From: a virus
Taxonomy: Duplodnaviria > Heunggongvirae > Uroviricota > Caudoviricetes
Direction: 5' to 3' (one strand)
Virus record (IMG/VR): IMGVR_UViG_2778261162_000005
Length of the DNA stretch: 36,774 nt
Part shown: positions 925 through 36,774 of the stretch, one piece after another
Position numbering within the stretch: position 1 is the stretch's first letter
Layout: each line of letters starts with the position of its first letter
Notes under the pieces: model-generated
Told to the model about the DNA's origin: nothing
What the model saw: only the letters and a program-made list of their open reading frames with translations
Database searches by the model: none
Program-made: the position numbers and the translations under genes

Positions 925-2132
925 TGGCTGCGCAAGGGTTCTTACTGATCGCCACGTTTTTACTGGTGTTAATGGTGCTGGCGCGTCCTTTAGGCAGCGG
1001 GCTGGCGCGGCTGATTAATGACATTCCTCTTCCCGGTACAACGGGCGTTGAGCGCGTACTTTTTCGCGCACTTGGCGTCTCTGACCGTGAGATGAACTGG
1101 AAGCAATATCTTTGTGCCATTCTCGGCCTGAACATGCTGGGGCTGGCGGTGCTGTTTTTTATGTTGCTCGGTCAGCACTATCTGCCGCTTAATCCACAGC
1201 AGTTGCCGGGGCTGTCGTGGGATCTGGCGCTGAATACCGCCGTCAGCTTTGTCACGAATACCAACTGGCAATCTTACAGCGGTGAAACCACGTTGAGCTA
1301 TTTCAGCCAGATGGCTGGCTTAACGGTGCAAAACTTTCTTTCTGCCGCCAGCGGGATTGCGGTGATTTTTGCCCTCATCCGTGCGTTTACCCGCCAGAGC
1401 ATGAGCACACTCGGGAATGCCTGGGTCGATCTGCTACGCATCACGTTATGGGTGCTCGTCCCTGTGGCGTTGTTGATCGCACTGTTTTTTATTCAACAAG
1501 GTGCGCTGCAAAACTTTCAGCCTTATCAGGCTGTGAATACCGTTGAAGGAGCGCAACAGCTGTTACCCATGGGGCCTGTAGCTTCTCAGGAAGCGATCAA
1601 GATGCTCGGTACTAACGGCGGTGGCTTCTTTAATGCCAACTCGTCGCATCCGTTTGAAAACCCAACCGCACTGACCAACTTCGTGCAGATGCTGGCGATC
1701 TTCTTGATCCCAACGGCGCTGTGCTTTGCCTTTGGTGAAGTGACGGGCGATCGCCGCCAGGGGCGCATGTTGCTGTGGGCGATGTCAGTGATTTTTGTCA
1801 TCTGCGTAGGCGTGGTGATGTGGGCAGAAGTTCAGGGTAATCCTCATCTGCTGGCGCTCGGCGCAGACAGCAGCATCAATATGGAAGGTAAAGAGAGCCG
1901 TTTCGGCGTGCTGGTCAGTAGCCTGTTTGCGGTCGTGACTACGGCGGCTTCCTGTGGCGCGGTGATTGCGATGCATGATTCGTTTACCGCTCTCGGTGGC
2001 ATGGTGCCGATGTGGCTGATGCAAATTGGTGAAGTGGTGTTCGGCGGTGTCGGTTCTGGTCTTTACGGCATGATGCTGTTTGTCCTGCTGGCGGTGTTTA
2101 TTGCCGGGCTGATGATTGGTCGTACACCGTGA
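924..2132 (+). pseudogene. kdpA: kdpA (potassium-transporting ATPase subunit A) truncated by prophage insertion; 402 codons retained
   Basis: ATG at 924 overlapping kdpF stop; multi-pass membrane protein [16 protein letters not shown]...MIGRTP then TGA at 2130. Intact KdpA is about 557 aa (recalled) and continues EYLGKK after GRTP; here non-kdp sequence follows. Confidence 0.85.
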
Positions 2133-2136
2133 TCAG

Positions 2137-2176
2137 ACATGAGATAAATGAAGGGGGATCTGTGAGATAAATAACG
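2137..2176. repeat. Terminal direct repeats, putative transposase-binding sites at prophage end
   Basis: ACATGAGATAAATGAAG (2137-2153) and TCTGTGAGATAAATAAC (2160-2176) share TGAGATAAAT.A, spaced 23 bp, beginning 8 nt inside an element end that starts TG. Confidence 0.5.
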
Positions 2177-2325
2177 AATTGGAGTGGGTTAACATGGGTT
2201 CTGGTGAACAGAACTGAAATTCTTTTCCGCTATACGATAGATAAGTCGGGCATTGAAATCATCCTTCCTGGCAACTTAGAATCGAGTTTGCTGAAACATG
2301 ACCCGCAACAAAAAGGATGATTCCA

Positions 2326-2487
2326 ATGACTACTCAAAACAATAAGCATGATAGCCTGGATTACTCAGAAAAGCCCAAAAGCAAGCACATCGTGACGTTC
2401 GAGCGCGATTCCGGTAGAAAAGGAGAATCGTCTTCCTCTGCCAATAAAACCACTATGCCGGCAGCCCCTGCCCCAGGGAAAAAATAA
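2326..2487 (+). CDS. Hypothetical small hydrophilic protein (53 aa)
   Basis: ATG at 2326 with AAGGA 7 nt upstream; MTTQNNKHDSLDYSEKPKSKHIVTFERDSGRKGESSSSANKTTMPAAPAPGKK; below the ORF-track length cutoff; low-complexity, so coding status uncertain. Confidence 0.25.
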   Translation: MTTQNNKHDSLDYSEKPKSKHIVTFERDSGRKGESSSSANKTTMPAAPAPGKK

Positions 2488-2490
2488 ACA

Positions 2491-3123
2491 TCATTCATCG
2501 TTCGTTGCACGAACGCGCCTGATCTCCACTCTGGCAATCTGATCTGCTGGAATATAGGTTGCCAGAGCTCCCCAGTACTTATCAACCACGCCTTTATACT
2601 CTTCCCATTCGTTACTGCCTGAAGGGCTGCTGTGCGTGACGTAAAGAACCATATCGCCTTTATTCCCCAGGGTAAACGGACCGTTAGGCCACTCTTCAAA
2701 GTTCCCTGGCAGCCGTGACATCATACCGGAACCATCGCGAAGAATCACTCTGACCTCGGTAACGCTGAAGCCTGTTTGATCAAACATTGCCTGCCATGCT
2801 GAGCTGGTATCGTCAGACCATGAAATATCATTATTCCACAGTAATCTGTACATCCATTTGCGACCGTACCTGCGCCACCACGCACCGCATGTAACGGCAC
2901 ACAGAAGTGCTGGTGGTGTTGCCAGCCAGGCATTCAGACCTGCCCACATAACAGCCTGGTAAGCCATCATTGCTGTCAGGCCAAAAATCAGCGAAGAAAA
3001 AGTCACCTCAATGGGCTTGTGGTGATCCTTCAGTCCCACATTCGCAATAAAATACCCAATATAGCCACTGGTCAGGGTCACCAGTGTTGCCCATGGCAGA
3101 TTTAACAACGAAACGTCAAACAT
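2491..3123 (-). CDS. Membrane protein with about 3 N-terminal TM helices and a soluble C-terminal domain; unknown function
   Basis: Start taken at internal ATG 3123 (MFDVSLLNLPWATL...) because GGAGA precedes it; hydrophobic N-terminal about 100 aa, soluble C-terminal about 110 aa; lies downstream of the early-operon terminator. Confidence 0.6.
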   Translation of the reverse strand: MFDVSLLNLPWATLVTLTSGYIGYFIANVGLKDHHKPIEVTFSSLIFGLTAMMAYQAVMWAGLNAWLATPPALLCAVTCGAWWRRYGRKWMYRLLWNNDISWSDDTSSAWQAMFDQTGFSVTEVRVILRDGSGMMSRLPGNFEEWPNGPFTLGNKGDMVLYVTHSSPSGSNEWEEYKGVVDKYWGALATYIPADQIARVEIRRVRATNDE

Positions 3124-3161
3124 ATTTTCTCCCTGCATCCTGAATACTAAAGAGAGAGCAT

Positions 3162-3198
3162 AAAAAAAGCACGGTAAGGGGTCTACCGTGCTTTTATA
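3162..3198 (-). terminator. Rho-independent terminator ending the early operon after mor
   Basis: Read on the minus strand: GCACGGTA-loop-TACCGTGC followed by TTTTTTTATG; plus-strand side has TTTTAT as well. Confidence 0.6.
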
Positions 3199-3237
3199 CA
3201 ATAAGGAGATTTTTGAAAGGACTTTAACAAGCAGGAA

Positions 3238-3636
3238 TTATCTGGATTTGTTAACGTCTTTCGTCTCCTCTGGCAGATCTTCATCAAACAACCTGCCCTG
3301 CATCCGATCCAGTTCTTCTTTTCTGACCCGCTTAACCACGCTGTAGACCCACTGAAGCGAAACACCAAACTTGCGGGCCAGTTCGTGGTGGTTGCGTCCG
3401 TTAAACTCCCTGAAGATTTCCCGGTCGCGCTGACTGACCTTCCATACCATGCCCATCGGGAAATAAACGTTTTGCCCGCCCCAGACCTGCATCATTCGGT
3501 TCGCGACGGCCTGACCAATCTGGTCGGCAATTGCGGGCTCAATATCAATAATCTCGCGAACGGTCTCAGAGGTATGCTGTGCCAGCTCCACCAGGAGTTC
3601 CGGCCCTTTACTTCGAAACTGATTCAGGTCGCTCAT
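3238..3636 (-). CDS. mor: Mor/C-family transcriptional activator
   Basis: 132 aa; block QNVYFPMG...RDREIFREFNGRNHHELARKFGVSLQWVYSVVKR matches the recalled Mor pattern (VYIP.G, FNGRN, ELA..YGVS, VY..I.R). Confidence 0.7.
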   Translation of the reverse strand: MSDLNQFRSKGPELLVELAQHTSETVREIIDIEPAIADQIGQAVANRMMQVWGGQNVYFPMGMVWKVSQRDREIFREFNGRNHHELARKFGVSLQWVYSVVKRVRKEELDRMQGRLFDEDLPEETKDVNKSR

Positions 3637-4060
3637 GTTTTACTCCCGCAGCTCTGTGCTGCCACTTCTTCAGTTTCTCAATAACACTGCTTGCCTGTTC
3701 AGTATTGAGCCAGCGCAGGGCGCTGATGCCCGTTTCCCGCTTGATCCACCGCGCTAATGCATTTTCTGAACGGTCACGAACAATGCCGGCAGCAGCCATT
3801 TCAAGCCATAGCGCACGGATTTTCCTGGACTGCGGATGGTTATCCAGCGGTAAACCGGAGCTGGCTTTTCCGGCAGGCTTAACGCGAAAGCCTTTCCTTT
3901 TCATGGATTCCAGCACGCAGTTTAGTTGTGTGGTATCCATTCCTTTGGTTGAGGCTTTACCGGTCAGCCCCTGTAACATCTGGCGGTAGGTGTCTTCATC
4001 CATACCCAGTTCATTACGGGCAATATGAATGAGCTGGATAAGACGTTGTTTAGTCATCAT
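3608..4060 (-). CDS. gemA: GemA-like protein (Mu gp16 / DUF1018 family)
   Basis: Start at ATG 4060 (MMTKQRL...) with AGGAG 5 nt upstream; LIQLIHIARNELGMDEDTYRQMLQGLTGKAS pattern typical of Mu gp16-like proteins; immediately upstream of mor as in Mu. Confidence 0.6.
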   Translation of the reverse strand: MMTKQRLIQLIHIARNELGMDEDTYRQMLQGLTGKASTKGMDTTQLNCVLESMKRKGFRVKPAGKASSGLPLDNHPQSRKIRALWLEMAAAGIVRDRSENALARWIKRETGISALRWLNTEQASSVIEKLKKWQHRAAGVKHERPESVSK

Positions 4061-4265
4061 CGTTGCTCCTTTTACCTGCGCCACCGATATAATCGACATA
4101 TAAAGGAAGCGCCACAGGCCAGCACAGGAACATCACCGACCAGCTAATCCAGTAGCCGGCACCACTGTAACGTGAATAAAACCCTGAACGGCGGTGCAGT
4201 TCAGCAGTACACCAACCGACAAAACAATACCAGAACAGGGCACATACAACAGATTCAGCAGTCAT
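4050..4265 (-). CDS. Small membrane protein (71 aa), hypothetical
   Basis: ATG 4265 preceded by GGGGGGA; MTAESVVCALFWYCFVGW...; two hydrophobic segments; overlaps neighbours by a few nt (translational coupling). Confidence 0.4.
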   Translation of the reverse strand: MTAESVVCALFWYCFVGWCTAELHRRSGFYSRYSGAGYWISWSVMFLCWPVALPLYVDYIGGAGKRSNDDD

Positions 4266-4485
4266 TCTGAATATCCCCCCAACTGATATGAATATTACGG
4301 GCAGCAATGACAGGGTCGTTATTCCACCATGCACCTGACATGTATTTTTCAACCTGTTCGCGTCCGGCAATAACACCAATTGTGATCCCCGGCCTGACGT
4401 TCTTAAAAAAGGCGCGGGCAAAAAGGTATCTGGCAGATATTCGGCAGGCTTTTAATTTCCGGCTGTTACCTGATAGCGTAATCAT
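4255..4485 (-). CDS. Hypothetical early protein (76 aa)
   Basis: ATG 4485 with GGAGG 5 nt upstream and ATGA overlap with the stop of the upstream gene. Confidence 0.45.
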   Translation of the reverse strand: MITLSGNSRKLKACRISARYLFARAFFKNVRPGITIGVIAGREQVEKYMSGAWWNNDPVIAARNIHISWGDIQNDC

Positions 4486-5165
4486 CTGGCCTCCAGTTTC
4501 TGTTGTTCCTGCCCACTGACCGGGCGGTGCAGTCTGACGTTCTGCCCTTCACGAAACCCCGCATAGCGCGAGGCGTCGCCATTGCGGCTTCTTCCCGGTT
4601 GACGCGCCCTGGTGGTTTGCGTTTGCGGGTATTTATGTTCCAGCCACTGTTGCATCAGTTCACGCTCATCATCGGTCAGGGCAAAGGACTGTATTTTACT
4701 GATAACGGCCAGTACCCAGCCTTCAGCAAACTGGTCTCCACGGCTGGTACGGGTGGCGTTTTTTATTCTTTTGTTCTGTGCGCTGATATACTGCTGACGC
4801 GCCTTTTTCAGCTGGCGGACCAGCACTTCCCAGGTGTACGCAGCCAGTGCCGCTCGTTCCCGGTTACCGTAGAACCCCACAGACGGATGCGTGCCGGGGT
4901 GAATGATGGAGTTAACACCAAATGCCTCGCGGATGATGTTCATCAGGCCCAGCATGTAGCGCGGTGGACGGAGACTGCCTGTCGGCCAGTAATGACTGAT
5001 GGTTTCATCAATATCACTCATAGCAATGTCGGAATGTGTGATGCCGTGAACATCCATCAGTTTACGGGCTCGGCGCAGTGCCAGAGCGGCCTCGTGCGGG
5101 TTGCCGGATGCGGCCAGCGCCAGCAACTTTTTCAGTTTCTCAATGTGTTTATTCTGGTCTGTCAT
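4482..5165 (-). CDS. Hypothetical early protein, DUF2786-like N-terminus
   Basis: Start at ATG 5165 (MTDQNKHIEKLKKLLALAASGNPHEAALALRRARKLM...) with GGAGA upstream; N-terminal motif resembles the DUF2786 family common in prophages (recalled). Confidence 0.45.
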   Translation of the reverse strand: MTDQNKHIEKLKKLLALAASGNPHEAALALRRARKLMDVHGITHSDIAMSDIDETISHYWPTGSLRPPRYMLGLMNIIREAFGVNSIIHPGTHPSVGFYGNRERAALAAYTWEVLVRQLKKARQQYISAQNKRIKNATRTSRGDQFAEGWVLAVISKIQSFALTDDERELMQQWLEHKYPQTQTTRARQPGRSRNGDASRYAGFREGQNVRLHRPVSGQEQQKLEAR

Positions 5166-5377
5166 TGTTCTGTATCTCCGGTATTTTTCTGCCGTTTCCA
5201 TGCCCGGACAGCGTCGGACAGCTCTTTCAGGCTGTATGCTGCTTTAAGCTTTTCCCATAACCACTGTGTTGTTATGTGCATCAGCAGGGCAGCCAGGGCT
5301 GCCCCCGCACTGAGGCATGTCGCCAGGCCAGTAAGAATCAGTATCCATGCGGTGATTTCCCTGAGTATGTCAGCCAT
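5162..5377 (-). CDS. Small membrane protein (71 aa), hypothetical
   Basis: ATG 5377 with GGGAGG upstream; one TM segment (WILILTGLATCLSAGAALAALLM). Confidence 0.45.
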   Translation of the reverse strand: MADILREITAWILILTGLATCLSAGAALAALLMHITTQWLWEKLKAAYSLKELSDAVRAWKRQKNTGDTEQ

Positions 5378-5391
5378 TGAATGCCTCCCGG

Positions 5392-5688
5392 TTACTCGTT
5401 CGTGTAAATCACGCCCAGTCGTGCAGCCAGACGTTCCAGTTTTTTCTGTTTGTGGAAGTCAATCAGCCGGTCCATCCCCTGAAGGCGCAATTGCTCTGTC
5501 ATGATTTCCACGTCTGCCAGCTCTGCCGCGAGGTCGCTTTCGCTGCCCTGTCTGTTCAGATTGCGGGCAGCACTGGCCGCCAGTTCAGCGGCCTCTTCTG
5601 TCAGTTTCAGGGCCTGTGCGTCCGGCCCGAAACGCTGCAGGGCCAGACGGTAGAGGGCGGTGCGGGTGAGTATGGTGTTCCGTGTCAT
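5392..5688 (-). CDS. MazG-like nucleotide pyrophosphohydrolase domain protein
   Basis: 98 aa with EEAAEL (E-E-x-x-E) followed 17 residues later by AELAD (E-x-x-D), the all-alpha NTP-PPase signature. Confidence 0.5.
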   Translation of the reverse strand: MTRNTILTRTALYRLALQRFGPDAQALKLTEEAAELAASAARNLNRQGSESDLAAELADVEIMTEQLRLQGMDRLIDFHKQKKLERLAARLGVIYTNE

Positions 5689-5697
5689 GCCGCGCCC

Positions 5698-5970
5698 TCA
5701 GTGCTTCCGGTCAACAATGATGTGCAGGTCGCCTTCTGCAGTGATTTCCATCCGGTACGGCACCTCGTGCTCTGCCGCGTGGGTGAGTGTGTTCACTAGT
5801 ATCTGCAGGGCGGCCTCCTTTCCGTTAGTCGCCACAATGGCCTGCGTGGCCATGCTGATTAACGCCGTCAGGGCGCACATGATATCGGTGAGGTCACGGC
5901 ATTCACACTCGTTGAGATACCGTTCAACAAGGGCGCGGGTGCGCTGATGTGCTTCCTGTGGGGTAATCAT
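5698..5970 (-). CDS. Hypothetical early protein (90 aa)
   Basis: ATG 5970 with GGGAGG upstream; ATGA overlap with the upstream gene stop. Confidence 0.4.
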   Translation of the reverse strand: MITPQEAHQRTRALVERYLNECECRDLTDIMCALTALISMATQAIVATNGKEAALQILVNTLTHAAEHEVPYRMEITAEGDLHIIVDRKH

Positions 5971-6161
5971 TGCGCTTCCTCCCTGTCAGGGCGGGAGAAT
6001 TCCATAACGGGCACATCTGCCGAAAAATGCTGACTGCAGTACGGACAGACCAGGGTGACGCGTACTGCAGGTACGTGGTATTTACCGGACATCACGGCGA
6101 TGGCGCTGTGAAAACGCAGGGCTGTTATATCCCTCTCGCACTGAATACATTTAAATATCAT
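5967..6161 (-). CDS. Small Cys-rich (zinc-ribbon-like) protein
   Basis: 64 aa with CIQC...CPYC pairs; GAGGAGAA upstream of ATG 6161. Confidence 0.45.
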   Translation of the reverse strand: MIFKCIQCERDITALRFHSAIAVMSGKYHVPAVRVTLVCPYCSQHFSADVPVMEFSRPDREEAQ

Positions 6162-6258
6162 AATTTAATTCTCCTCTGTTTCCGGCGTGCAGAAGCCCAC
6201 GGCGCTGACGCCGGAATAAAAAAGAAAATGTTTTTATTAAATAATTAACGTGGTGTGT

Positions 6259-6789
6259 TTACTGCACATCCTGCTCAAAAGGAATTATTGAAAAATCCTC
6301 AATATCACTTTTTATGGTAATGCCGGGAATATTTTTCACGGCCTCTTTTTCATTCAGAATGGCATCTTTATTTATTTCCTCTTTTACACGAATAAAGCGC
6401 TCAAGCCCCAGACGTCTCAGTAGTTCAATAACATTATCCGCTCCACGGATACTGACTGATGGCGGACGGTTTCGCCATTGCACCTCGCCGGTGGTGAGGT
6501 TAGCGAACTTCACCTTCCCGTTGCCGGTCAGTTCATCACGGTGTGCCTCACACCATGTCTGGATACCGGACTGCAGTTCTGACATGCGTTTTTTCAGGCT
6601 CTCGGTGAGCGGGGCATAACGTGCGGTGATATCGCCAATGGCGTCATTCATTTCTGTTTCAGCCCTGACCAGTTCACGTTGTGCGTCACCGAGCAGTCTG
6701 ATGCCCTCAATGACCTCTTCGCGTGTCCCCGGTACCCAGAGTGCCGCTGCGGACTTGATACGTTTTGCCCCTTTTGTACTTTTTGCCAT
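6259..6789 (-). CDS. gam: Host-nuclease inhibitor protein Gam (Mu Gam family)
   Basis: 176 aa; MAKSTKGAKRIKSAAALWVP...RPPSVSIRG...GITIKSDIEDFSIIPFEQ closely parallels Mu Gam as recalled. Confidence 0.85.
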   Translation of the reverse strand: MAKSTKGAKRIKSAAALWVPGTREEVIEGIRLLGDAQRELVRAETEMNDAIGDITARYAPLTESLKKRMSELQSGIQTWCEAHRDELTGNGKVKFANLTTGEVQWRNRPPSVSIRGADNVIELLRRLGLERFIRVKEEINKDAILNEKEAVKNIPGITIKSDIEDFSIIPFEQDVQ

Positions 6790-6816
6790 ATTTTATGATT
6801 TCTCCGGTTGTGCTGA

Positions 6817-7086
6817 TTACCACAAAGATTCCGGCCACACGACGCGACAGCCGTGCAGTTCGAAAACGCCCTGACGGAAATGTCCCCTGTGGTCATGACC
6901 GGTATACAGATAACTGGCTTTCCCCTGTTCAAGCATGCGCATGCAATGCGCACTCCGGGAAACGCGGATGACAGGTTTATTGCCCCTGATGGTGATGCTT
7001 TGTACATCCGTGTTCGTTGCCATAAGCGCCATAATGGCTGACTGCACTTTGCTGATTTGCTGGTTGATACCTGTGATGGATTTCAT
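6817..7086 (-). CDS. Hypothetical early protein (89 aa), same position as Mu kil
   Basis: ORF directly downstream of the B-like gene; no recognisable motif; positional analogy only. Confidence 0.35.
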   Translation of the reverse strand: MKSITGINQQISKVQSAIMALMATNTDVQSITIRGNKPVIRVSRSAHCMRMLEQGKASYLYTGHDHRGHFRQGVFELHGCRVVWPESLW

Positions 7087-7088
7087 TA

Positions 7089-8255
7089 TTAAACCCCTTT
7101 GACAACGTCAGCGTTGACCTGTGGAACCCCGATTTCAGCGGCCAGATTCATGGCGGCTATCACCAGGTTACTGACGGCCAGCGGATACAGCAGGCTGACC
7201 CTGTTTTTACGATGACTTCCCGGATTGCTCAGGCGGGCACGTATGGCATCCACTGCGCCGGCGTCCATAATGTCCGTCAGTTGTTTACCGGCCCGTTGCA
7301 GTTTGAACGTCAGAAACTCTTCAAGGTTATTGTCGAGAGGCAGAAGTTCGACCACCTCACAGCGCTGAACGACTTCACGGACTTCCATATTGCGTTCAGA
7401 CAGTTTTGTCGCCAGTTCCGGCTGGCCAATCAGCACGATGGACAGCAGTTTTTTGAAACCGGACTCCAGCTCAAAAAAGCGTTTGAGGTGTTTCAGTGTC
7501 GGAACGGGCAGACTGTGGGCTTCCTCAATCACCAGAACGTGGCTGAACCCCGCCTGGCGGCTGTCTTTCAGGACGCGATGCAGCTGGCGAAAGCGGGCGT
7601 CCTGACTGCGTCTGATGCTTTCCAGTGGTGCGATGGTACTGATAATGGCTTCGGCAATCGCTGCTGCCTTCAGGGTTTTCCCTTTCACATCGTTGTCTTC
7701 CATGGCGATGACGTATGGCTCGATAATAATTACCGGCGCATTCTCGCGGTTGATACGTTCAGTCAGGTCACGGCGCAGCGTGGATTTACCCGCACCGGAC
7801 TCACCGATGACAGCCATAAACCCGCCATGACGGGCTGTCTGGTACAGCGCCTCACGCACGTAGCGAATGTCCGGGGTGGTGAACACATCATCAGAACCCT
7901 GCATGGCTTCGTCGGCGAACGGGTCACGGAAAAGACCAAACGCTTTTTTGGTTGCTGGAAATAACACCTGTTTTTTGAGTAACATATTCTCTTCCTCACT
8001 GAGGCTCGTTTTATCTGTGGTACCCGCTGTACGGGGCGTGGCCGCGCCCTGTACAGCATCAAAACTCTTCGCTGTATCAATCCCCTGACTTTCCAGCCAG
8101 GACGCAAGACGCCGGCGCACTTCTCCGGGGCTGGTGCGGGGCCACGCGTTATGATTCACAATCTGGGCCAGCGTGGCCTCAGAAACATCGACAGCTCTCG
8201 CCACCACCGCCTGTGGAATACGGGCCTCTTTCAGTTGCTGCTTCAGTACCAGCAT
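7089..8255 (-). CDS. Transposition target-DNA activator, MuB-like AAA+ ATPase
   Basis: Start at ATG 8255 (MLVLKQQ...) with AAGGAGG upstream; Walker A GESGAGKST, Walker B-like HVLVIEEAH; immediately downstream of the transposase. Confidence 0.75.
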   Translation of the reverse strand: MLVLKQQLKEARIPQAVVARAVDVSEATLAQIVNHNAWPRTSPGEVRRRLASWLESQGIDTAKSFDAVQGAATPRTAGTTDKTSLSEEENMLLKKQVLFPATKKAFGLFRDPFADEAMQGSDDVFTTPDIRYVREALYQTARHGGFMAVIGESGAGKSTLRRDLTERINRENAPVIIIEPYVIAMEDNDVKGKTLKAAAIAEAIISTIAPLESIRRSQDARFRQLHRVLKDSRQAGFSHVLVIEEAHSLPVPTLKHLKRFFELESGFKKLLSIVLIGQPELATKLSERNMEVREVVQRCEVVELLPLDNNLEEFLTFKLQRAGKQLTDIMDAGAVDAIRARLSNPGSHRKNRVSLLYPLAVSNLVIAAMNLAAEIGVPQVNADVVKGV

Positions 8256-8265
8256 GTTTCCCTCC

Positions 8266-10035: not shown

Positions 10036-10038
10036 TGG

Positions 10039-10950: not shown

Positions 10951-10960
10951 TTATTACTCC

Positions 10961-11269: not shown

Positions 11270-11321
11270 CTGCATACCTCTTTTGCGATATGTGATAACC
11301 TTTTACAAAGACTCAAAATCT

Positions 11322-11949: not shown

Positions 11950-12035
11950 TTTTGACCTGGACACAAAGGGCGCGTGGTTGATCTGGATGCTTTCAGAAAA
12001 CATCGCCAGTGACATAGTGGAAGTTGTTTGGTTTA

Positions 12036-15472: not shown

Positions 15473-15474
15473 CC

Positions 15475-24593: not shown

Positions 24594-24602
24594 GGAGGCG
24601 TT

Positions 24603-24941: not shown

Positions 24942-24942
24942 C

Positions 24943-28042: not shown

Positions 28043-28044
28043 CG

Positions 28045-28326: not shown

Positions 28327-28423
28327 CATCACAGGGGCTCCGGCCCCTTCTTCTTAATCTCCTTTAATATCCGTCACGTCCACCGCCAGACATACTGCTC
28401 TGAATTTACAAAGGAGTATGATC

Positions 28424-28759
28424 ATGTCACAGACCCAGTCCGATACTTTTACGCTGTCTTATCCTTTCACCACTGCTGCAGGTACCAGAATTGAACAGAT
28501 TGAACTGAAACGCCTGACAGTAAAAGACCTGAAGCAGGTGCGCAAAATCAACAAAGACCCGGCAGACTGGGACGAACCACTGATTGCCCGTAGCACCGGT
28601 ATCCTCCCGGAAGACCTCGATAACATGGATCTTGCCGACTATATGGAGCTGCAGAAACGATTTCAGAAAATCACTGGGCTGGGCAAGAGCGACAAAAACA
28701 CTGATGCAGGCGCAGGGCCTGCTGGCGAGATGGTTCAGGTTTCAGCCGGGGGAGATTGA
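28424..28759 (+). CDS. Tail assembly chaperone (upstream frame)
   Basis: ATG 28424, 7 nt after AAGGAG; located just upstream of the tape measure gene. Confidence 0.6.
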   Translation: MSQTQSDTFTLSYPFTTAAGTRIEQIELKRLTVKDLKQVRKINKDPADWDEPLIARSTGILPEDLDNMDLADYMELQKRFQKITGLGKSDKNTDAGAGPAGEMVQVSAGGD

Positions 28760-28841
28760 TGCCCTCGATACTGACGATCTGGAGATGTGGCTGGAGCAGG
28801 CTGAAGAGCAAATCAAAAGCGAGTTCGGCGACAATCAGTAA
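28424..28841 (+). CDS. Frameshift-extended tail assembly chaperone (shift near 28748-28753)
   Basis: A second ORF open in the frame offset by +1 overlaps the 3' end and extends to 28841; G5 run GGGGG 5 nt before the in-frame UGA. Confidence 0.45.
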
Positions 28842-28933
28842 CAACGTATCACTTAACAGCCGCCAGTCGCGGCTGTTCTGCATGGGGTTCAGACACTTCC
28901 CTTCCGTTTTTTTGCTTTCAGAGGATAGCCACC

Positions 28934-31399
28934 GTGGCCAGTGAATTTTCAGTCGGCGTCATTATTGGCGGCATTGTCGGGAGCAGCTTCCGCTCAGCCG
29001 TCAGTGGCACCCGACGCGCCCTTGATTCCCTTGGTGATACCTCCCGCCGTCTGCAGGAACGCCAGAATGCCTTAACCCGGGCAACAGAACGTTATGGTCA
29101 ACTGGGTTCTTCCCGGATGCAGCATCTCAACAGCGAGTTGCTGCGGGTAAGCCGCACCATGGAGCAAATTGAACGTCAGCAGCGCCGTCTGTCAGCAGTA
29201 TCAGCCACCGGTGATGCGTTGAAGGCTAACCGCCTGGCGCTCTATGGTCAGGGTGCAGAAACCTATGCTATTGGCAGAACGCTGGGCGCACCGGTCATGG
29301 CCTCGGTTAAACAATATGCCTCGTTTGAATCACAGTTACGGGATATCAGTGTCACAGGAGACCTGGATGCAAAACAGGAACGTGCAATTGGCCTGGCTAT
29401 CAGACAGGCCTCGCTGAAGGTTAACCAACTGCAGGAGTCTCTGTTAGGGGGAGTCGGACAATTAGTTGCTGATGGTATGGCCCCCGAACGGGCAGCAACG
29501 TTTGCAGAGATGCTTGGAAAGACCGCTACAGCAACCAAAGCCGATATGACCGACCTTGCCAAAATGACTTATGCCTTCAGCGATGCACTCAGAATCACTG
29601 ATGCGAAAGAACTTGAACAGGCATTTGGTATTGCGGCAACAGGAGCCAAACTTGGGTCATTTGAGCTGAAGGATATGGCAAAAGCATTACCCGGTATGGC
29701 TAAAGCCTTCGCTGCCCGTGGCATTTATGGAAAAGATGCGATTACCCAGATTGTTGCCAGTCTGGAGGTCGGTAAAGGTAGTGGCTCTGCAGAGGAAGCG
29801 GTCACCAATATGTCCAACTGGCTGGCAGCAATGGGCCGCGGAGATACCATCCAGAAATATGCTAAAGCCGGGGTGGATTACCAGGGGTCAATGCAGAATT
29901 ACGTCGCTCAGGGTTTTTCGCAGTACGAAGCTTCACTGATGATTGCCAACCGTTTTATCGACAGTAAAGGCAAAGCGTTTTTGCAGCAATGGAAAGCTGC
30001 AGGAGCAAGAGGCGATCAGGAAGGTCAGCAGAAACTCATGGAGTCATTTGGTCTGGCTGAGGTCTTTACCGATATTCAGACTGTCAACCATTTACTGTCA
30101 ATGCGACAGGGCTGGGATAAATACCTTTCCAGTAAGCAGGAAATGAATGCTCCGGCTGCAATGTCTACCCTGGATAAGGATGCTGCAAAGCAGAATGATA
30201 CGCTTGAAGGTCGCTGGCGCAGAATGCAGATCGGCTTTAATGATTCTGCTATCAGCATCGGGCAATCCTTGCGTCCGGCTTTGCTCCAGTTGGGTGAAAC
30301 ATTTATTCCTTTAATGGACAGCGTCGGCAAATGGATAGCGGCAAATCCGCAGCTCGTCAGCAGCACCATAAAGGTTGTGGGCGCATTACTCGCTTTCAGG
30401 ATGGCCACTATCGGTCTCAAGCTTGGGCTGAATCTCCTTATTTCCCCCTTTGTAAGCGTCTGGAAAAATGCTGTTTTACTGCGGACCAACTGGCGTCGAC
30501 TGACTACCGCACTCGGAGAAGGTGGCAAATTACGCTGGCTTGTCACTGGATTCAGCCGGCTGGCCAGCGGAGGACTGAAACTCAGCAAAGTTCTGGCGGG
30601 CAGCCTCGTTCGCGGTTTTATGATTGCTGCACGTGCCCTTCTCTGGATTGGCCGGGCGCTGATGATGAATCCCATCGGTCTCGCTATCACCGCCGTCGCG
30701 GCAGCAGCTTACCTTATCTACCGCAACTGGGGCGCAGTCAGTAGCTGGTTTAAACAGCGCTGGGCTGACATTCAGGAAGCCTTTAACGGCGGCATCGCGG
30801 GAATTGGTAAACTGCTGGTTAACTGGTCTCCGGCGGGTCTGCTTTATAAAGCCTTTGCGGCTGCGCTGAAATATCTCGGCGTTGATTTGCCGGCGAAGTT
30901 CACCGACTTCGGTGGTCATCTTATCGACGGGCTGATAAATGGCATCAGAAACAAATGGGAGTCACTGAAAACCAGCATAACCGGAATGGGTGACAGCATC
31001 AGTGACTGGTTCAGCGAAAAGCTGGGCATCCATTCACCGAGTCGCGTGTTTATAGGCTTTGGTGACAATATCGCGCAGGGTGCCGCCATTGGCCTGCAAC
31101 GGACCACTCCGCTTGCTGCACTGGCCGGGCAGCGCCTGGCCGCTGAAATGACACCGGATGTTCCCCGTATCCCGTCGCCGGAAATCATGGCTGCCGGATA
31201 TTCAGGCCGTGGCGCAACTGCAACCGGCGGTGGAGCGTCTGGCGGTATCCAGGTCAGCTTTAATCCTCAGTTTTTCCTCAATGGTAAGGAAACCGCAGCG
31301 CCTGCCGGGCTGGCTGGTGCCCTGAATATGAGCCTGCATGAGCTGGAAAAAATGCTGGAGCGTCTGCTGGCTCAGAAACAACGTAAGGAGTACAGCTGA
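28934..31399 (+). CDS. Tail tape measure protein
   Basis: 821 aa, GTG 28934 after GAGGA; long helical N-terminal half, C-terminal TM-like segments. Confidence 0.8.
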   Translation: MASEFSVGVIIGGIVGSSFRSAVSGTRRALDSLGDTSRRLQERQNALTRATERYGQLGSSRMQHLNSELLRVSRTMEQIERQQRRLSAVSATGDALKANRLALYGQGAETYAIGRTLGAPVMASVKQYASFESQLRDISVTGDLDAKQERAIGLAIRQASLKVNQLQESLLGGVGQLVADGMAPERAATFAEMLGKTATATKADMTDLAKMTYAFSDALRITDAKELEQAFGIAATGAKLGSFELKDMAKALPGMAKAFAARGIYGKDAITQIVASLEVGKGSGSAEEAVTNMSNWLAAMGRGDTIQKYAKAGVDYQGSMQNYVAQGFSQYEASLMIANRFIDSKGKAFLQQWKAAGARGDQEGQQKLMESFGLAEVFTDIQTVNHLLSMRQGWDKYLSSKQEMNAPAAMSTLDKDAAKQNDTLEGRWRRMQIGFNDSAISIGQSLRPALLQLGETFIPLMDSVGKWIAANPQLVSSTIKVVGALLAFRMATIGLKLGLNLLISPFVSVWKNAVLLRTNWRRLTTALGEGGKLRWLVTGFSRLASGGLKLSKVLAGSLVRGFMIAARALLWIGRALMMNPIGLAITAVAAAAYLIYRNWGAVSSWFKQRWADIQEAFNGGIAGIGKLLVNWSPAGLLYKAFAAALKYLGVDLPAKFTDFGGHLIDGLINGIRNKWESLKTSITGMGDSISDWFSEKLGIHSPSRVFIGFGDNIAQGAAIGLQRTTPLAALAGQRLAAEMTPDVPRIPSPEIMAAGYSGRGATATGGGASGGIQVSFNPQFFLNGKETAAPAGLAGALNMSLHELEKMLERLLAQKQRKEYS

Positions 31400-32283
31400 T
31401 GTTTGCCGTACTGGGTGATATTGAGTTTGAACTGATTACCTACTGGGACGGCTTCGAGGCCACGTTTGGCGTCGATTATGCGGAGCATGCCCGCATCGAG
31501 GGTAAACCCGGCCTGCAGTTTGTCGGCGACAGGCTGGACGAAATCCAGATAAGCCTGGTCTTCCATCAGCATTATTGTGTGCCCGACGTGGAGCTGGCGA
31601 GAGTGCGAACAGCCATGAAGGCCCATCAGGCACTGGCGCTGGTCTTCGGCAACGGTGACTATCGCGGCTGGTTCGTGATTACCGATGTGACCGCAACCAG
31701 CGAGCAGACAGACAGCACCGGTAACGTGCTGGCTGTCAGTGCCACCGTGTCTCTCCGGGAATACACCGGTGACCCGAAAAATCCTCTGCAACCGCCGGCA
31801 ATACGCAGGCAGGTTCCCGGTGCCGGAGCTGTATCGGGTGCTGTTCCATCGCCTTCCGGGGTGGCGCAGTTCGTCCGTAACGGCGTCAACTATGCGAAAC
31901 AGGCGCAGTCTGTACTCCAGACCACTATCAGTGCCGTTCGGGTGGCGCAGAAAATGAAGGGTAACCCCGTTGTCGCGCTGACCCGTGTGCCGGGACTGAT
32001 GAGCGGACTGGGTAATATATCCGGCGCTCTGGGGAAAAGTATTCCGGCGTTTAATGCACTCTCTGAATCCATGCCCGATGCCATCAGTCTGGCCAGAACA
32101 GCCAGTGAGGCAGCCACGTATGTACAGCAGGCGCAGTCGGCGCTGAGTGGTGTGGACAAAAGAAATATTGCAGGTGCTCTGGATACCGTTTCCGGGCAGC
32201 TTAACGCCGCCGGCACAGCATTCAACCGCATGTCTCCGGGATTAAGTGCAATGGCCGCCAGAATACTGACGAGGAGTGTGTGA
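31399..32283 (+). CDS. Tail protein, P2 gpU-like / Mu N-like
   Basis: N-terminus MFAVLGDIEFELITYWDG...GKPGLQFVGDRLDEIQISLVF resembles the gpU pattern (recalled). Confidence 0.55.
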   Translation: MFAVLGDIEFELITYWDGFEATFGVDYAEHARIEGKPGLQFVGDRLDEIQISLVFHQHYCVPDVELARVRTAMKAHQALALVFGNGDYRGWFVITDVTATSEQTDSTGNVLAVSATVSLREYTGDPKNPLQPPAIRRQVPGAGAVSGAVPSPSGVAQFVRNGVNYAKQAQSVLQTTISAVRVAQKMKGNPVVALTRVPGLMSGLGNISGALGKSIPAFNALSESMPDAISLARTASEAATYVQQAQSALSGVDKRNIAGALDTVSGQLNAAGTAFNRMSPGLSAMAARILTRSV

Positions 32284-32495
32284 TGTTTCTTGAACATATT
32301 ACCCGTGACGGAGAGCGCTGGGATTCGCTGGCATGGCAGTACTACGGTGACCCGCTGGGCTATCCCCGGATTATTGCAGCCAATCCGCACGTGGCCATTA
32401 CGCCGGTGCTGCCCTCCGGGTTGTTGTTACTGATCCCGGTTATTGAGGCTGAAGATGCCCGTACAGAAGAGGATATTGCCCCATGGCTGAGATAA
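32283..32495 (+). CDS. Tail protein X-like (LysM-like)
   Basis: 70 aa; RWDSLAWQYYGDPLGYPRIIAANPHVAI...LPSGLLLLIP matches the P2 gpX pattern (recalled). Confidence 0.6.
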   Translation: MFLEHITRDGERWDSLAWQYYGDPLGYPRIIAANPHVAITPVLPSGLLLLIPVIEAEDARTEEDIAPWLR

Positions 32496-33637
32496 ACAGT
32501 ACTGCGCAAGCCACATCAGCGTTAACCGGCGTCAGCGATGTGCTGACGCCGGTATTCACTCTGTGGTATCTGCAGAAAAACATCACCTCTGATATCGCGC
32601 CTTATGTCACCCGTGTGGTCTGGAGCGATAACATCAAAAATGAGTCCGATACCATTGAGGTGGAGCTGGACGACACCGATGGCCGCTGGCTGGATAAGTG
32701 GTATCCGGGCAAGGGTGACACGCTGACGCTGAAAATGGGTTATCAGGGCGAGAAACTGCTGTCCTGCGGTACATTCTCAATAGACGAGATCGAAGTGAGT
32801 TCGCCCGCGTCCGTTGTCGCTATCCGTGGGGTGGCCACCTCGGTTAACAGTGCTCTGCGGACTAAATCCAGCCGTGGTTTTGAGAACACCACGCTGGCAG
32901 CTGTTGCGGGGCGGATTGCCAGAAAGCACCGGCTGAAACTGGTGGGCAGCATTGAGTCCATCAGAATCGACCGGGTGACCCAGTATGCTGAAACCGACGT
33001 GGGTTTTCTGCGCCGGCTGGCCAGCGAGTATGGTTATGCAGTGAAAGTGGTCAGTGACCAGTTGATTTTTTCTCATCTGGCCACACTGCGCAGTCAGGAG
33101 CCGGTCAGGCAGTTAAAACCGCAGGATGTGGCCTGCTTTTCCCTGCGTGACACCATCAACCGGGTCTATAAATCTGCAAAGGTAAAACACCAGAAAAGCA
33201 GCAGTAAAAAACTGATCGTCTACGAAGCTGATGGTGGTACCCGTGAAAGCGACAAAAAGCTCAAAGGCGGTAAGGTTACCAGCGCTGACTCACTTAAAGT
33301 TAACAGCCGCGTCAGCGACCCGGACAGTGCCCGGATTAAAGCGGATTCAGCACTGGCCAGACATAACGAATACCAGCAGAACGGCTCCCTGACGCTGACG
33401 GGAACGCCTCAACTGACAGCAGGCAACAAAATTGAACTGGTGGGCTTTGGACAGTTATCCGGTCCATGGCTGATAATCACTGCCCGCCATGCGTTTGAGC
33501 GTAACAGCGGCTACACCACAGAGCTGGAAGTGGCACGGGGGCCAGTCACAAGAGGGAAAAAACAAAAAACTCAGAAACTCACGGTTTATCACCCGGATGG
33601 CAGTACATCGACGGTGATTAAGGAGAAGAAAAAATGA
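32483..33637 (+). CDS. Baseplate hub / late control D-like tail protein
   Basis: 384 aa following the X-like gene. Confidence 0.65.
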   Translation: MAEINSTAQATSALTGVSDVLTPVFTLWYLQKNITSDIAPYVTRVVWSDNIKNESDTIEVELDDTDGRWLDKWYPGKGDTLTLKMGYQGEKLLSCGTFSIDEIEVSSPASVVAIRGVATSVNSALRTKSSRGFENTTLAAVAGRIARKHRLKLVGSIESIRIDRVTQYAETDVGFLRRLASEYGYAVKVVSDQLIFSHLATLRSQEPVRQLKPQDVACFSLRDTINRVYKSAKVKHQKSSSKKLIVYEADGGTRESDKKLKGGKVTSADSLKVNSRVSDPDSARIKADSALARHNEYQQNGSLTLTGTPQLTAGNKIELVGFGQLSGPWLIITARHAFERNSGYTTELEVARGPVTRGKKQKTQKLTVYHPDGSTSTVIKEKKK

Positions 33638-34161
33638 CTGGTGTCACCCGTCAGATCGGTACGGTCAGTGCCGTTGATGCCGACAGGGTTCAGGCCCGCG
33701 TTCGTCTGCCTGAATGCGATAATCTGCGCACAAACTGGCTTAACGTGCTACAGCGCAATACCCAGGATAACAAGGATTACTGGCTCCCTGACGTGGGGGA
33801 GCAGGTTGAGGTGCTGCTCGATGCCAACGGCGAGGATGGTGTTATTCTGGGCGCGGTGTACTCAGACGTCGATAAACCGCCGTTCAGTGATAAAAACGTC
33901 CGGGGTACGAAATACGCTGATGGCGCGGAGTTCAGTTATAACCGCGCGACCCATACGCTGACGGTCAGAGGAGGTATTGAGCGTATCGTGGTGGAGGTTG
34001 CCGCTGATATCTCTCTCAAAGGGAAAAACCTCGACCTCACGGGAGTTACCACGATCAACGGCCCCGCGACACTCAATGGTGATCTGGAAATCAACGGAAG
34101 CGCCCATGCAACGGGTAACATATTTGCTGATGGTCAGAACTCTAATCACCATTCCCATTGA
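33634..34161 (+). CDS. Baseplate spike protein, gpV-like
   Basis: 175 aa with OB-fold-like N-terminus and Gly-rich repeat C-terminus. Confidence 0.65.
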   Translation: MTGVTRQIGTVSAVDADRVQARVRLPECDNLRTNWLNVLQRNTQDNKDYWLPDVGEQVEVLLDANGEDGVILGAVYSDVDKPPFSDKNVRGTKYADGAEFSYNRATHTLTVRGGIERIVVEVAADISLKGKNLDLTGVTTINGPATLNGDLEINGSAHATGNIFADGQNSNHHSH

Positions 34162-34217
34162 ACCTTCTTAAACGCCTTTAATATCGGCGCTTACTTCCCG
34201 GGGGCAATACTGCCTCC

Positions 34218-34565
34218 ATGAAAACGACCTCAGTATTCTGGCAACCAGCTCTGCAGGCTCCCGGCGAAATCGTCCGGGGGCTGGATGATATCCGGCAGTC
34301 CATCCAGATCATCCTGCGGACTCCCCGCGGCAGCGACCCGCATCGCCCGGAGTTCGGCAGCAATCTGCACCTTTATATCGACTGGCCTGTCGACCGGGCC
34401 ATTCCGCATGTGGTTCGCGAATCCGTCGATGCCATCAGGCGCTGGGAACCCCGCTGCCAGCTTATGTCGGTTAAACCCGCCGTCGACGGCGAACATCTTA
34501 CGCTCCGGGTGAGCTGGAAAGGCTCAGACGGACAACCCCGTACTCAGGAACTGCTATGGCGCTGA
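34218..34565 (+). CDS. Baseplate protein, gpW / gp25-like
   Basis: 115 aa in the canonical position between V-like and J-like genes. Confidence 0.65.
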   Translation: MKTTSVFWQPALQAPGEIVRGLDDIRQSIQIILRTPRGSDPHRPEFGSNLHLYIDWPVDRAIPHVVRESVDAIRRWEPRCQLMSVKPAVDGEHLTLRVSWKGSDGQPRTQELLWR

Positions 34566-35659
34566 CAGAACCCGATTTTATTGAACGCGATGCCGATAAA
34601 ATCACGGCAGAAATGATTGCGAAGTATGAAGAGGATACCGGAAAAACGCTGTACCCGGCACAGGCTGAACGTCTGCTGATTGACCTGTGGGCCTATCGCG
34701 AAATGCTGGTCAGGGTGGCAGTACAGGAGGCGGCGAAGCAGAATCTGGTCGCTTTTTCCCGTGAGCCGATGATTGATTACCTCGGTGAACTGGTCGGTGT
34801 ATACCGCCTTGCTGCGCAGCCTGCCACCACCACACTTCAGTTCTCTGTGGATGAGGCACTGGCCATTGATGTGCTGATCCCGGCAGGCACCCGCGTCAGC
34901 GCTTCCGACAGTATTATTTTTGCCACCGATACAGATGTGGTGCTGAAGGCCGGATTGCTGCTGGTCAATGTCACGGCCACCTGTACCGAGCCGGGTACCG
35001 CTGGCAACGGCTGGCAACCGGCGCAGGTCAGTCAGTTACTCGATGAGATTGATAACATTGACCTGCTGGTGACCAATCTGACGGCCAGCTCTGGCGGTTC
35101 AGAGCAGGAAGACGATGACCGGCTCCGGGAGCGTATCAGGCTGGCCCCGGAGTCATTCACCAATGCCGGAAGCCGTGGTGCATACCGTTTTCATGCTATG
35201 GGGGCGCATCCCGGCATTGTCGACGTTGCTGTTCTTTCTCCCGCTCCCGGCACTGTCGAGCTGTATCCGCTGCTCAGCACTGGTCTGCCGGACAGCAGTA
35301 TCCTCACTCTGGTAGAGAGTTTCTGTTCTGACGAAAAAGTCAGACCACTCACTGATACCGTGCGGGCTAAAACACCTGTTCAGGTGGATTACACCATTGA
35401 AGCCAGGATTACGATCTATCGTGATCAGGATGCAAGGTTGGTAAAGGACAACGCTAACAGCGCCATACAGAACTGGGTGGCATCCCGTACCGCCACGCTG
35501 GGGCGCGATATTGTTCCCAGCCAGATTATCAGCGTGTTGTCCGTTTCCGGGGTGTACCAGGTCGAACTGGTGACACCGGCACTGAGGGTGGTGGCAGAAA
35601 ACGAATGGGCAAACTGTACGGCGATCACTCTTAACATGACCGGGGTGTCCGATGGCTGA
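34556..35659 (+). CDS. Baseplate wedge protein, gpJ-like
   Basis: 367 aa following the W-like gene. Confidence 0.7.
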   Translation: MALTEPDFIERDADKITAEMIAKYEEDTGKTLYPAQAERLLIDLWAYREMLVRVAVQEAAKQNLVAFSREPMIDYLGELVGVYRLAAQPATTTLQFSVDEALAIDVLIPAGTRVSASDSIIFATDTDVVLKAGLLLVNVTATCTEPGTAGNGWQPAQVSQLLDEIDNIDLLVTNLTASSGGSEQEDDDRLRERIRLAPESFTNAGSRGAYRFHAMGAHPGIVDVAVLSPAPGTVELYPLLSTGLPDSSILTLVESFCSDEKVRPLTDTVRAKTPVQVDYTIEARITIYRDQDARLVKDNANSAIQNWVASRTATLGRDIVPSQIISVLSVSGVYQVELVTPALRVVAENEWANCTAITLNMTGVSDG

Positions 35660-36230
35660 GGTGCTACAACTCCCGCCACCGCTTGAGGGTGATATCAGTC
35701 TCAGAACGCTGGGAAGACTGGCCGGACGGCTGGATAACATCGACCTGAGCGTACTGATGGTCGGTCTCGTCGATATTGTCGACAGTTCCGCGCTGCCATG
35801 GCTTGGCGAGCAGTTCTCGCTGTTCGGCGATGGCTGGGAACTGGCGGAATCGGACGATGTACGCCGCATGCTTATCAAATCCGCTATCGAGCTACACCGC
35901 TATAAAGGAACACCGTGGTCAATCCGGGAAATTATCCGCCGTTTTGGCTTCGGCGAAGTGGATCTGATTGAAGGTACGGGGCAGATTGGCTATGACGGCA
36001 GACACACGTACAACGGGCTTTTCGTCCATGGTGATGCACAAGCCTGGGCAGTCTATCGCGTCATCCTTCAACAACCCATCACTAACGATCAGGCGGCGCT
36101 GTTACGTCAGACGCTTGCTGCCTTTGCTCCGGCTCGCTGTCATCTGGCAAGTCTGGAATATCAGTCTGTCGCCATTCGATACAACAGTACTACCCGTTAT
36201 GACGGTAGTTACAACCACGGGAGCAGTTAA
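35652..36230 (+). CDS. Baseplate/tail protein, gpI-like
   Basis: 192 aa between the J-like and fibre genes. Confidence 0.6.
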   Translation: MAEVLQLPPPLEGDISLRTLGRLAGRLDNIDLSVLMVGLVDIVDSSALPWLGEQFSLFGDGWELAESDDVRRMLIKSAIELHRYKGTPWSIREIIRRFGFGEVDLIEGTGQIGYDGRHTYNGLFVHGDAQAWAVYRVILQQPITNDQAALLRQTLAAFAPARCHLASLEYQSVAIRYNSTTRYDGSYNHGSS

Positions 36231-36232
36231 TT

Positions 36233-36774
36233 ATGGCAAATCTACCCGAAACCCCGCAGTGGGAAAGCGGCATATACCAGATTGAGGTCTCTGACCCCGT
36301 TCTGGGCGGACCTGACGGAATTTCTAACCGCCAGGCTAAACAACTGGCCAGCCGAACGTCATACCTCAAACAGAAGGTCGAAAAAAGCGGAACAGACCTG
36401 GCTGCACATATCGCGGCAGTTGACCCGCATACCCAGTACGCGACGAAAGCCAGTCCGACATTCACCGGCACACCAACAGCACCTACACCTGCAAATGGTG
36501 ATAACAGCAAAAAGCTGGCGACGACGGAGTTTGTGGCCAAAGCACTTGCGGCACTTGCAGGCAGCGCCCCTGAGACACTGGATACGCTTAAAGAGCTGGC
36601 TGACGCTCTCGGTAATGATCCAAACTTTGCGACTACGGTACTGAACAAGCTGGCGGAAAAGCTGGCTAAAGACCAGAACGGCGCAGATATTCCTGAGCCT
36701 GCGCTGTTTGTCAAAAACCTTGGTTTGGGGGAAGGCTCTGCACTACCTGTTGGTGTGCCTGTTCCATGGCCGTC
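36233..36774 (+). CDS. Tail fibre protein, N-terminal part (3' end beyond window)
   Basis: ATG 36233; MANLPETPQWESGIYQIEVSDPVLGGPDGISNRQAKQLASRTSYLK is the conserved tail-fibre N-terminal domain (recalled); ORF still open at 36774. Confidence 0.65.
   Translation, partial: MANLPETPQWESGIYQIEVSDPVLGGPDGISNRQAKQLASRTSYLKQKVEKSGTDLAAHIAAVDPHTQYATKASPTFTGTPTAPTPANGDNSKKLATTEFVAKALAALAGSAPETLDTLKELADALGNDPNFATTVLNKLAEKLAKDQNGADIPEPALFVKNLGLGEGSALPVGVPVPWP

Follow-up and report, generated by a model that had tools for sequence, protein, structure and literature searches.

Divergent early and late genes in an Escherichia coli prophage follow the known layout of BcepMu-like transposable phages

Background

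The virus record IMGVR_UViG_2778261162_000005 (Caudoviricetes; 36,774 nucleotides in total, hereafter the window) carries from base 2130 to its last base a prophage whose genes recall the transposable phage Mu but whose gene order does not. The locus raises the question of whether this order is a departure from that of known transposable phages, a product of assembly or inversion, or the standard layout of a described group. The layout is confirmed here as real but ordinary: it is standard for BcepMu-like and B3-like phages and was already known. We are highly confident that bases 2130-36774, which make up the left 90% of the element, belong to a BcepMu-like transposable myovirus prophage that is intact, has been mobile recently and transposed into kdpA. 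This reading includes a divergent order that is ancestral to the phages combining a Tn552-like rve transposase with an ExeA-type ATPase, namely BcepMu, phiE255, B3-like phages and enterobacterial relatives.

BcepMu-like transposable myophages are reportedly the group described by Summer in 2004 and by Lavigne in 2009. The divergent early and late layout of BcepMu and B3 has been present in the literature since 2004 and has been repeated in reviews. For BcepMu, a two-cluster organisation has been described in which the interface serves lysogeny control and the genes for lysis, head and a P2-related tail come next (Lavigne et al. 2009, PMC2771037), and B3-like phages have been characterised by an inversion of the early operon (PMC5977238).

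Results

Layout of the prophage and comparison with Mu

The list of open reading frames (ORFs), the RefSeq annotation of a copy of the prophage in the chromosome of E. coli M-17, and the profile searches agree on the overall organisation. Early genes lie on the minus strand and run towards the left end, late genes lie on the plus strand, and the repressor and accessory genes are located between them. In the control region, the repressor gene points rightward and the Ner-like and early genes point leftward. A mixed-strand island follows at 12065-14991, and from 15122 onwards all genes are encoded on the plus strand. The GC skew switches sign together with the strand switch.

The sequence-only reading had described this order as different from that of Mu, and the comparison bears this out. 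Mu has c at its left end and carries ner, A, B, gam, gemA, mor, C and every late gene on a single strand. Ten window proteins match Mu proteins in BLASTP searches. The late ones, TerS, TerL (49% identity), portal (27%), F, G, gp36 and gp47, are colinear with Mu on the same strand, whereas the early ones, Gam (63%), GemA and Mor/C, have their order reversed and are encoded on the strand opposite the late genes. Mu likewise has a repressor divergent from the early operon and Mor as the last early gene. Apart from a weak gp47/J match (25% identity, E 1e-4), no similarity to the Mu tail genes was detectable.

Comparison with BcepMu and B3

The sequence-only reading had likened the layout to that of BcepMu-type phages, and the comparison supports this. 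Proteins of Burkholderia phage BcepMu, which like phiE255 belongs to the genus Bcepmuvirus, are matched by 35 of the 53 window ORFs with identities of 28-77% (mean 52%), and these matches are strictly colinear and on the same strands. On the bottom strand they comprise gp01, 02, 08, 09, 10, 12 and 16, and on the top strand gp17, 21-23, 25-32, 34-41 and 44-51. BcepMu encodes genes 1-16 on its bottom strand and 17-52 on its top strand, with its Mor end at the left terminus and the repressor and Ner-like genes at the interface, as in the window prophage. It also shares the order of lysis genes, Mu-like head genes and a P2-like tail in the order FI-FII-E-T-U-X-D-V-W-J-I-H, in agreement with the published organisation (PMC2771037).

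The arrangement extends to Pseudomonas phage B3 (Beetrevirus). Its ORFs 1-17 occupy the bottom strand, the leftmost of them being Mor, and the top strand carries the repressor ORF18 and the genes after it. B3 shares the transposase family (57% identical), the ExeA-type ATPase, the DUF3102 protein, the helix-turn-helix (HTH) regulator, and GemA and Mor at the left end, as well as rightward lysis and Mu-like head genes. In contrast, it has a siphovirus tail without sheath, tube and P2-type baseplate genes, and its nucleotide similarity to the prophage is ~6%. Taken with the published descriptions, the comparison with BcepMu and B3 identifies the layout as the standard one of a well-described genus, so that the original observation is correct but not novel.

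Colinear copies in other genomes

A divergent order could also result from an assembly error or from a private inversion of the early region in a prophage of Mu order. No support was found for this explanation, which was considered as an a priori possibility, and its probability is practically nil. The complete chromosome of E. coli M-17 is an independent sequence that carries a copy at another locus, in otsA, and this copy is colinear with the window and differs by 7 mismatches in 34,645 bp. The relatives deposited as phages also cross the strand switch on one strand. Escherichia phage PhiKM is 94% identical at the nucleotide level, Klebsiella KP12_2 and Escherichia phage Phi06_2974 B are 84% identical in the aligned parts, and the gene order is identical in all of them. 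KP12_2 and Phi06_2974 B each give one same-strand alignment that runs across the strand switch to ~25 kb, and the main same-strand alignment of PhiKM spans ~3.3 to 17.5 kb and crosses it as well. Since the PhiKM record is permuted, its remaining late genes align in a second place. In addition, BcepMu and B3 have the same order, the left terminal repeats adjoin the mor end exactly as in BcepMu, and 626 E. coli genomes cover at least 80% of bases 7089-12000 in one place. With such colinearity across genomes, neither misassembly nor an inversion artefact can explain the order.

Among 5,426 complete E. coli genomes, the early region spanning the ATPase gene to the repressor gene was found in 644. 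In the window, the final 30 bases already diverge from M-17, with 4 of the 7 mismatches.

Prophage ends, insertion site and mobility

Bases 1-2129 are host DNA on the plus strand. They comprise the end of rhsC, then ybfA, kdpF and the initial 1206 nt of kdpA, and match the rhsC-ybfA-kdpF-kdpA region of many E. coli strains at 100% identity. The interrupted host gene is kdpA, after nt 1206 (GE3 annotation; position in the intact kdpA). Host identity ceases at 2129 and identity with the M-17 copy begins at 2130, which places the left end of the prophage exactly at 2130. The extent of 2130-36774 given by the sequence-only reading is therefore exact on its left side, and its right boundary is only the edge of the window.

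The left terminus (2130-2172, plus strand) starts with 5'-TGATCAGACATGAGATAAAT at base 2130, that is with 5'-TG, and a motif search found two copies of a terminal repeat, (A/G)TGAGATAAAT, at 2139-2149 and 2162-2172. In the M-17 copy, which represents the prophage at its length of 38.3 kb, this motif is confined to the two ends and is inverted at the right end. These repeats are the presumed transposase-binding sites. Both BcepMu and the E. coli prophage, whose right end is that of the M-17 copy, start with TGA and end with CA, and both have two repeats of 10-11 nt per end at ~10-20 and 33-43. The repeat sequences differ, with (T/C)G(A/C)GATA(T/A)(T/A)T in BcepMu and (A/G)TGAGATAAAT in the E. 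coli prophage. TG...CA termini are characteristic of BcepMu relatives (PMC2628397).

The M-17 prophage measures 38,313 bp and has a right end of ...CA with inverted repeats. The window therefore contains the left 90% of such an element, and ~3.7 kb lie beyond base 36774. Judged by the M-17 copy, this part contains the remainder of the tail-fibre gene, more fibre cassettes, an invertase/recombinase gene and the right end. Compared with the intact otsA of K-12, the M-17 copy is flanked by the target duplication TCCAGC, with a length of 6 bp or possibly 7 bp. In other genomes, the left end adjoins flgA, clbG, yfaV, kefF and other genes, and its position beside many different host genes is the signature of transposition.

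These observations also bear on whether the prophage might be a decaying, immobile remnant whose order is not that of a working phage, as could be suspected because the window shows no more than its left 90%. The homologues of essential BcepMu genes all have their full length, near-identical copies reside in different genes of different strains, and a 94%-identical sequence has been deposited in GenBank as the phage PhiKM (partial genome). A remnant is thus highly improbable compared with an intact prophage that was recently mobile.

Lysis, head and tail modules

The late region begins with a lysis cassette (15122-16840, plus strand) encoding a holin, an endolysin with an SLT domain, and an Rz-like spanin, which are 53%, 61% and 30% identical to BcepMu gp21-23 (Pfam Holin_2-3 and SLT). 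The Mu-like head module follows at 16837-26104 on the plus strand and encodes gp25/26-like proteins, TerS of the Mu gp27 family, TerL, portal, Mu F, G, protease/scaffold, the major capsid protein and gp35-38-like connectors, with 45-62% identity to BcepMu gp25-38. The Mu-like nature of the head had been proposed from the sequence and is supported by Pfam matches to Phage_Mu_Gp27, Portal_Mu and Phage_Mu_F. Identities of the head module to Mu gp27-30, G and gp36 range from 27 to 49%, with TerL at the upper value to gp28.

The contractile tail module (26094-36230, plus strand) encodes sheath, tube, an ORF at 28045-28326, an E-like chaperone, tape measure, U, X (32283-32495), D (32483-33637), V, W, J and I, which are 28-77% identical to BcepMu gp39-51. 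Homologues of P2 FI (sheath), FII (tube), D, V, W, J and I were found by tblastn, and U, X, D and the E-type chaperone by Pfam, with Phage_P2_GpU, Phage_tail_X and Phage_GPD among the matches. The X-like and D-like genes had been described as following P2 order, which is correct only in part. P2, a Peduovirus, has X beside its lysis genes, followed by V-W-J-I-H-G and then by FI-FII-E-T-U-D. Within each block this order is kept, but the blocks are swapped and X is relocated between U and D, as in BcepMu. P2 also differs in having an integrase, cos ends and a different head.

A recent enterobacterial mosaic that joined a B3/BcepMu-type early module to a Mu head and a P2 tail could account for the same set of modules. 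In favour of this, Gam lacks a BcepMu counterpart and shares 63% identity with Mu Gam, TerL reaches 49% identity to Mu gp28, and tail proteins match P2. However, every module is nearer to BcepMu: TerL with 62% versus 49% to Mu, portal with 59% versus 27% to Mu, and sheath with 77% versus 32% to P2. Signs of later acquisition are limited to single genes, namely Gam and the genes of the island. Since the modules join at the same points as in BcepMu, the mosaic is older than the separation of the lineages, and a recent origin is very unlikely. Inheritance of the complete arrangement within the BcepMu-like group is the preferred reading.

At the right edge of the window, the 5' part of a tail-fibre gene (36233-36774, plus strand) is cut by the window end; its frame is open to the last base, and the gene continues in M-17. 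There, outside the window, positions 37013-41144 contain the tail-fibre gene, three short cassettes annotated as 'phage tail protein', a fibre-assembly gene, one inverted cassette and a gene of the recombinase family (Gin-like). BcepMu has been reported to lack an invertible segment (PMC2628397, PMC2771037), whereas in the M-17 copy multiple tail-fibre cassettes are accompanied by a recombinase. This suggests that the right end of the M-17 copy is a multi-cassette invertible host-range region that is not present in BcepMu.

Early region and left end

The early genes occupy the minus strand at 2491-11510. According to Pfam and PHROGs, their order in the direction of transcription is a Ner-like gene, a winged-HTH regulator, a DUF3102 gene, the transposase, the ATPase, small ORFs, Gam, further small ORFs, GemA and Mor. 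The first three, a Ner/Cro-like HTH protein (11322-11510), the winged-HTH regulator (10961-11269) and the DUF3102 protein (10039-10950), resemble BcepMu gp16, gp12 and gp10, respectively (Pfam/PHROGs, BLASTP). They are followed by a DDE transposase with the Pfam rve domain (8266-10035), which is 68.5% identical to BcepMu gp09 and 57% identical to that of B3. Next to it lies the gene of a B-like AAA+ ATPase of the ExeA family (7089-8255; Pfam AAA_22), which is 59% identical to BcepMu gp08. BLAST detected no similarity of the transposase and the ATPase to MuA and MuB (E<=0.01 for Mu A).

The semi-essential early region (4050-7086, minus strand) contains small ORFs, a DUF2786/DUF7168 protein (4482-5165) and a Mu-type Gam (6259-6789; Pfam). 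BcepMu has gp03-07 in this region, and BLASTP found no BcepMu counterpart of Gam. With 63% identity, Gam is far closer to Mu than any other Mu match of the prophage. It was probably acquired horizontally within the enterobacterial transposable phages.

The operon closes with GemA (3608-4057, minus strand; Pfam 1e-40; 44% identical to BcepMu gp02) and the last early gene, which encodes a late-transcription activator of the Mor/C family (3238-3636, minus strand; Pfam 1e-43; 56% identical to BcepMu gp01). Mor and GemA are 31-36% identical to Mu Mor, C and GemA. The hairpin search found an intrinsic-terminator-like structure with a 13-bp stem and a T run at 3165-3195 on the minus strand, 43 nt 3' of mor. 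We infer from its position that the early transcript would end here, which would give an early unit of ~8.4 kb with Mor as its last gene.

Two more ORFs lie between this terminator and the terminal repeats, a small ORF of 53 AA (2326-2487, plus strand; phrog_15726) and an ORF of 210 AA (2491-3123, minus strand; phrog_12870). A plus-strand promoter-like site at 2253-2282 precedes the former. Neither ORF had a Pfam, PADLOC or BcepMu match, and both PHROGs families are of unknown function. In BcepMu, the corresponding slot contains only ~360 bp of non-coding DNA, and other small ORFs are annotated there in PhiKM and KP12_2. The left-end ORFs are specific to the lineage, and their content may vary between PhiKM, KP12_2 and M-17. 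The left-end region at 2326-3123 is probably a slot for cargo (moron) genes.

Control region and accessory island

The repressor is an HTH protein of the Cro/CI type (11491-11949, plus strand) that matches Pfam HTH_3 and PHROG repressor families and is 36% identical to BcepMu gp17. RefSeq-style annotation starts the gene at the equivalent of 11491, which gives a 5' extension that overlaps the divergent Ner-like gene. The leftward promoter with the best match, the candidate early promoter TTGACT-17-CATAAT at 11558-11586 on the minus strand, is a consensus match of the sigma-70 type and lies inside this 5' extension. Because of this position of the promoter, the ATG at 11611 is the more plausible start. 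The repressor therefore more probably begins at this in-frame ATG, giving a predicted protein of 112 AA with the HTH at its N-terminus (residues 6-51), and the start codon is probably mis-called in RefSeq-style annotation.

A hairpin terminator was found 3' of the repressor gene at 12035-12059 (plus strand; hairpin search). Behind it, the island contains a Dam-type N6-adenine methylase (12065-12829, minus strand; Pfam MethyltransfD12), two phrog_2266 paralogues on the plus strand (13024-13404 and 13868-14272) separated by an ORF of 71 AA from the ORF list (13654-13869, minus strand), and an ORF of 247 AA assigned to phrog_3787 (14248-14991, minus strand). BLASTP found no BcepMu homologues for the island at 12065-14991; BcepMu has gp18-20 at this position, and the window prophage has Dam and the phrog_2266 paralogues instead. 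The gene content of the central island also differs in PhiKM and KP12_2. The four island ORFs besides Dam had no Pfam or PADLOC match, and their PHROGs families are of unknown function. A defence role was considered for the island and the left-end ORFs and was not adopted: PADLOC returned methyltransferase models only, for the Dam gene, Pfam returned nothing, and PHROGs returned families of unknown function.

Late-promoter-like elements

A pattern search identified the motif TTAA-N6-TTAAWATC on the plus strand at 15054-15071, 51 nt upstream of the holin gene, at 22437-22454 upstream of the protease/scaffold gene, at 28354-28371 upstream of the E-type chaperone gene, and at 34168-34185 upstream of the gpW-like gene. 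The 4 matches compare with 0.12 expected by chance, a comparison that is partly circular since the pattern was drawn from the same sequences as were counted. All of them are on the plus strand and in gaps before late blocks. These elements are candidate Mor/C-dependent late promoters. Mu has four C-dependent late promoters, which the four late elements of the prophage parallel.

Related elements occur in BcepMu in three of the four syntenic gaps. An identical 16-mer is located upstream of gp21 (11489-11504) and gp32 (18816-18831), and CTTTTAGCCGGCTTTAATATCC (~30772-30793) is located upstream of gp49. The fourth gap, which precedes gp41, yielded just a terminator hairpin and a T run, and no related late element. 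In the window, the third late motif is directly preceded by a G+C-rich hairpin (GGGGC-TCCG-GCCCC) with a T-rich run behind it, at 28327-28352 on the plus strand.

A further conserved sequence, TTTATAAAGGCTTTAC (window 22354-22369; BcepMu ~18740-18760), is located in the intergenic gap between G and I near the centre of the genome. The strong gyrase site of Mu is located in the same G-I gap (Mu 17879-17880), and the 40 nt upstream of I resemble Mu (CACAAACTGTCT versus CGCAAACTGACT). The conserved block may be an analogue of the gyrase site or of P_I. An alignment of the G-I region of the window, BcepMu, B3 and Mu gives a short block shared with BcepMu and some likeness to Mu near I, which is insufficient to call a gyrase-site analogue.

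Discussion

The assignment of the element to an intact BcepMu-like prophage has to be weighed against several points that speak against it. The nucleotide similarity to BcepMu amounts to ~19% of the genome length (blastn coverage x identity), and megablast gave no BcepMu match. [quoted passage not shown] With a similarity of ~19%, strict membership in the ICTV genus Bcepmuvirus is therefore doubtful. The gene content also differs, in that the E. coli prophage has a Mu-type Gam, Dam, other island genes, extra left-end ORFs and, in M-17, a recombinase beside the fibre cassettes, and in that the BcepMu acyltransferase gp53 was not seen. These are ordinary mosaic differences. Another point is that the right end and the target duplication of the window copy fall outside the window. 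Finally, promoters, terminators and the late motif were assigned by consensus matching, and the sequences used to define the late motif are those in which it was counted.

Nevertheless, the prophage shows the traits of the BcepMu-like group, which are two divergent clusters, an rve transposase, TG...CA ends with repeats, many insertion sites with target duplication (in M-17), and a Mu-like head with a P2-related tail. The traits of Muvirus, the genus of Mu, D108 and SfMu, are lacking, as there is no MuA/MuB similarity in BLAST searches and the early markers run in the direction opposite to that of the late genes. The inverted early operon is shared with Beetrevirus, but sheath, tube and P2-type baseplate are encoded. 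GenBank files PhiKM under Bcepmuvirus, and recent surveys have placed in this genus prophages found in isolates of E. coli ST131 and of Pseudomonadota from the human gut. As a tentative alternative that we consider possible, though with the balance against it, the enterobacterial lineage might constitute a distinct and not formally described genus-level sister of Bcepmuvirus. It would comprise the window prophage, PhiKM, KP12_2, Phi06_2974 B and the prophages of ~12% of complete E. coli genomes. Such a genus would be marked by the Mu-type Gam, the variable island containing Dam, the multi-cassette fibre region beside a Gin-like recombinase, and four conserved Mor-type late promoters. If this were true, the divergent layout itself would remain the known one.

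For the transcription units, the function of promoters and terminators, and the roles of Mor and the terminal repeats, we infer a working model by analogy with Mu. The repressor gene (~11611-11949, rightward) and the early promoter (~11558-11586, leftward) would lie back to back in the central control region. Derepression would lead to a single leftward transcript of ~8.4 kb, which would encode the Ner-like protein, the regulators, the transposase, the B-like ATPase, Gam, GemA and lastly Mor, and would end at the hairpin at 3195-3165. The transposase would act on the terminal repeats and bring about replicative transposition. Mor, as the last product, would then turn on four rightward late units, each with a TTAA-N6-TTAAWATC element. 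These units would cover lysis and packaging/portal; head and sheath/tube; chaperone through V; and W through the fibres. Virions would presumably be filled by headful packaging from integrated copies.

Conclusions

The discovery value of the divergent layout is low, since near-identical E. coli prophages and phage isolates are already available in public databases. Its value lies in annotation: the element should be described as a BcepMu-like transposable prophage that disrupts kdpA and not as a variant of Mu. For this common family of E. coli prophages, the four late-promoter-like elements and the conserved terminal repeats provide testable handles on regulation and transposition.

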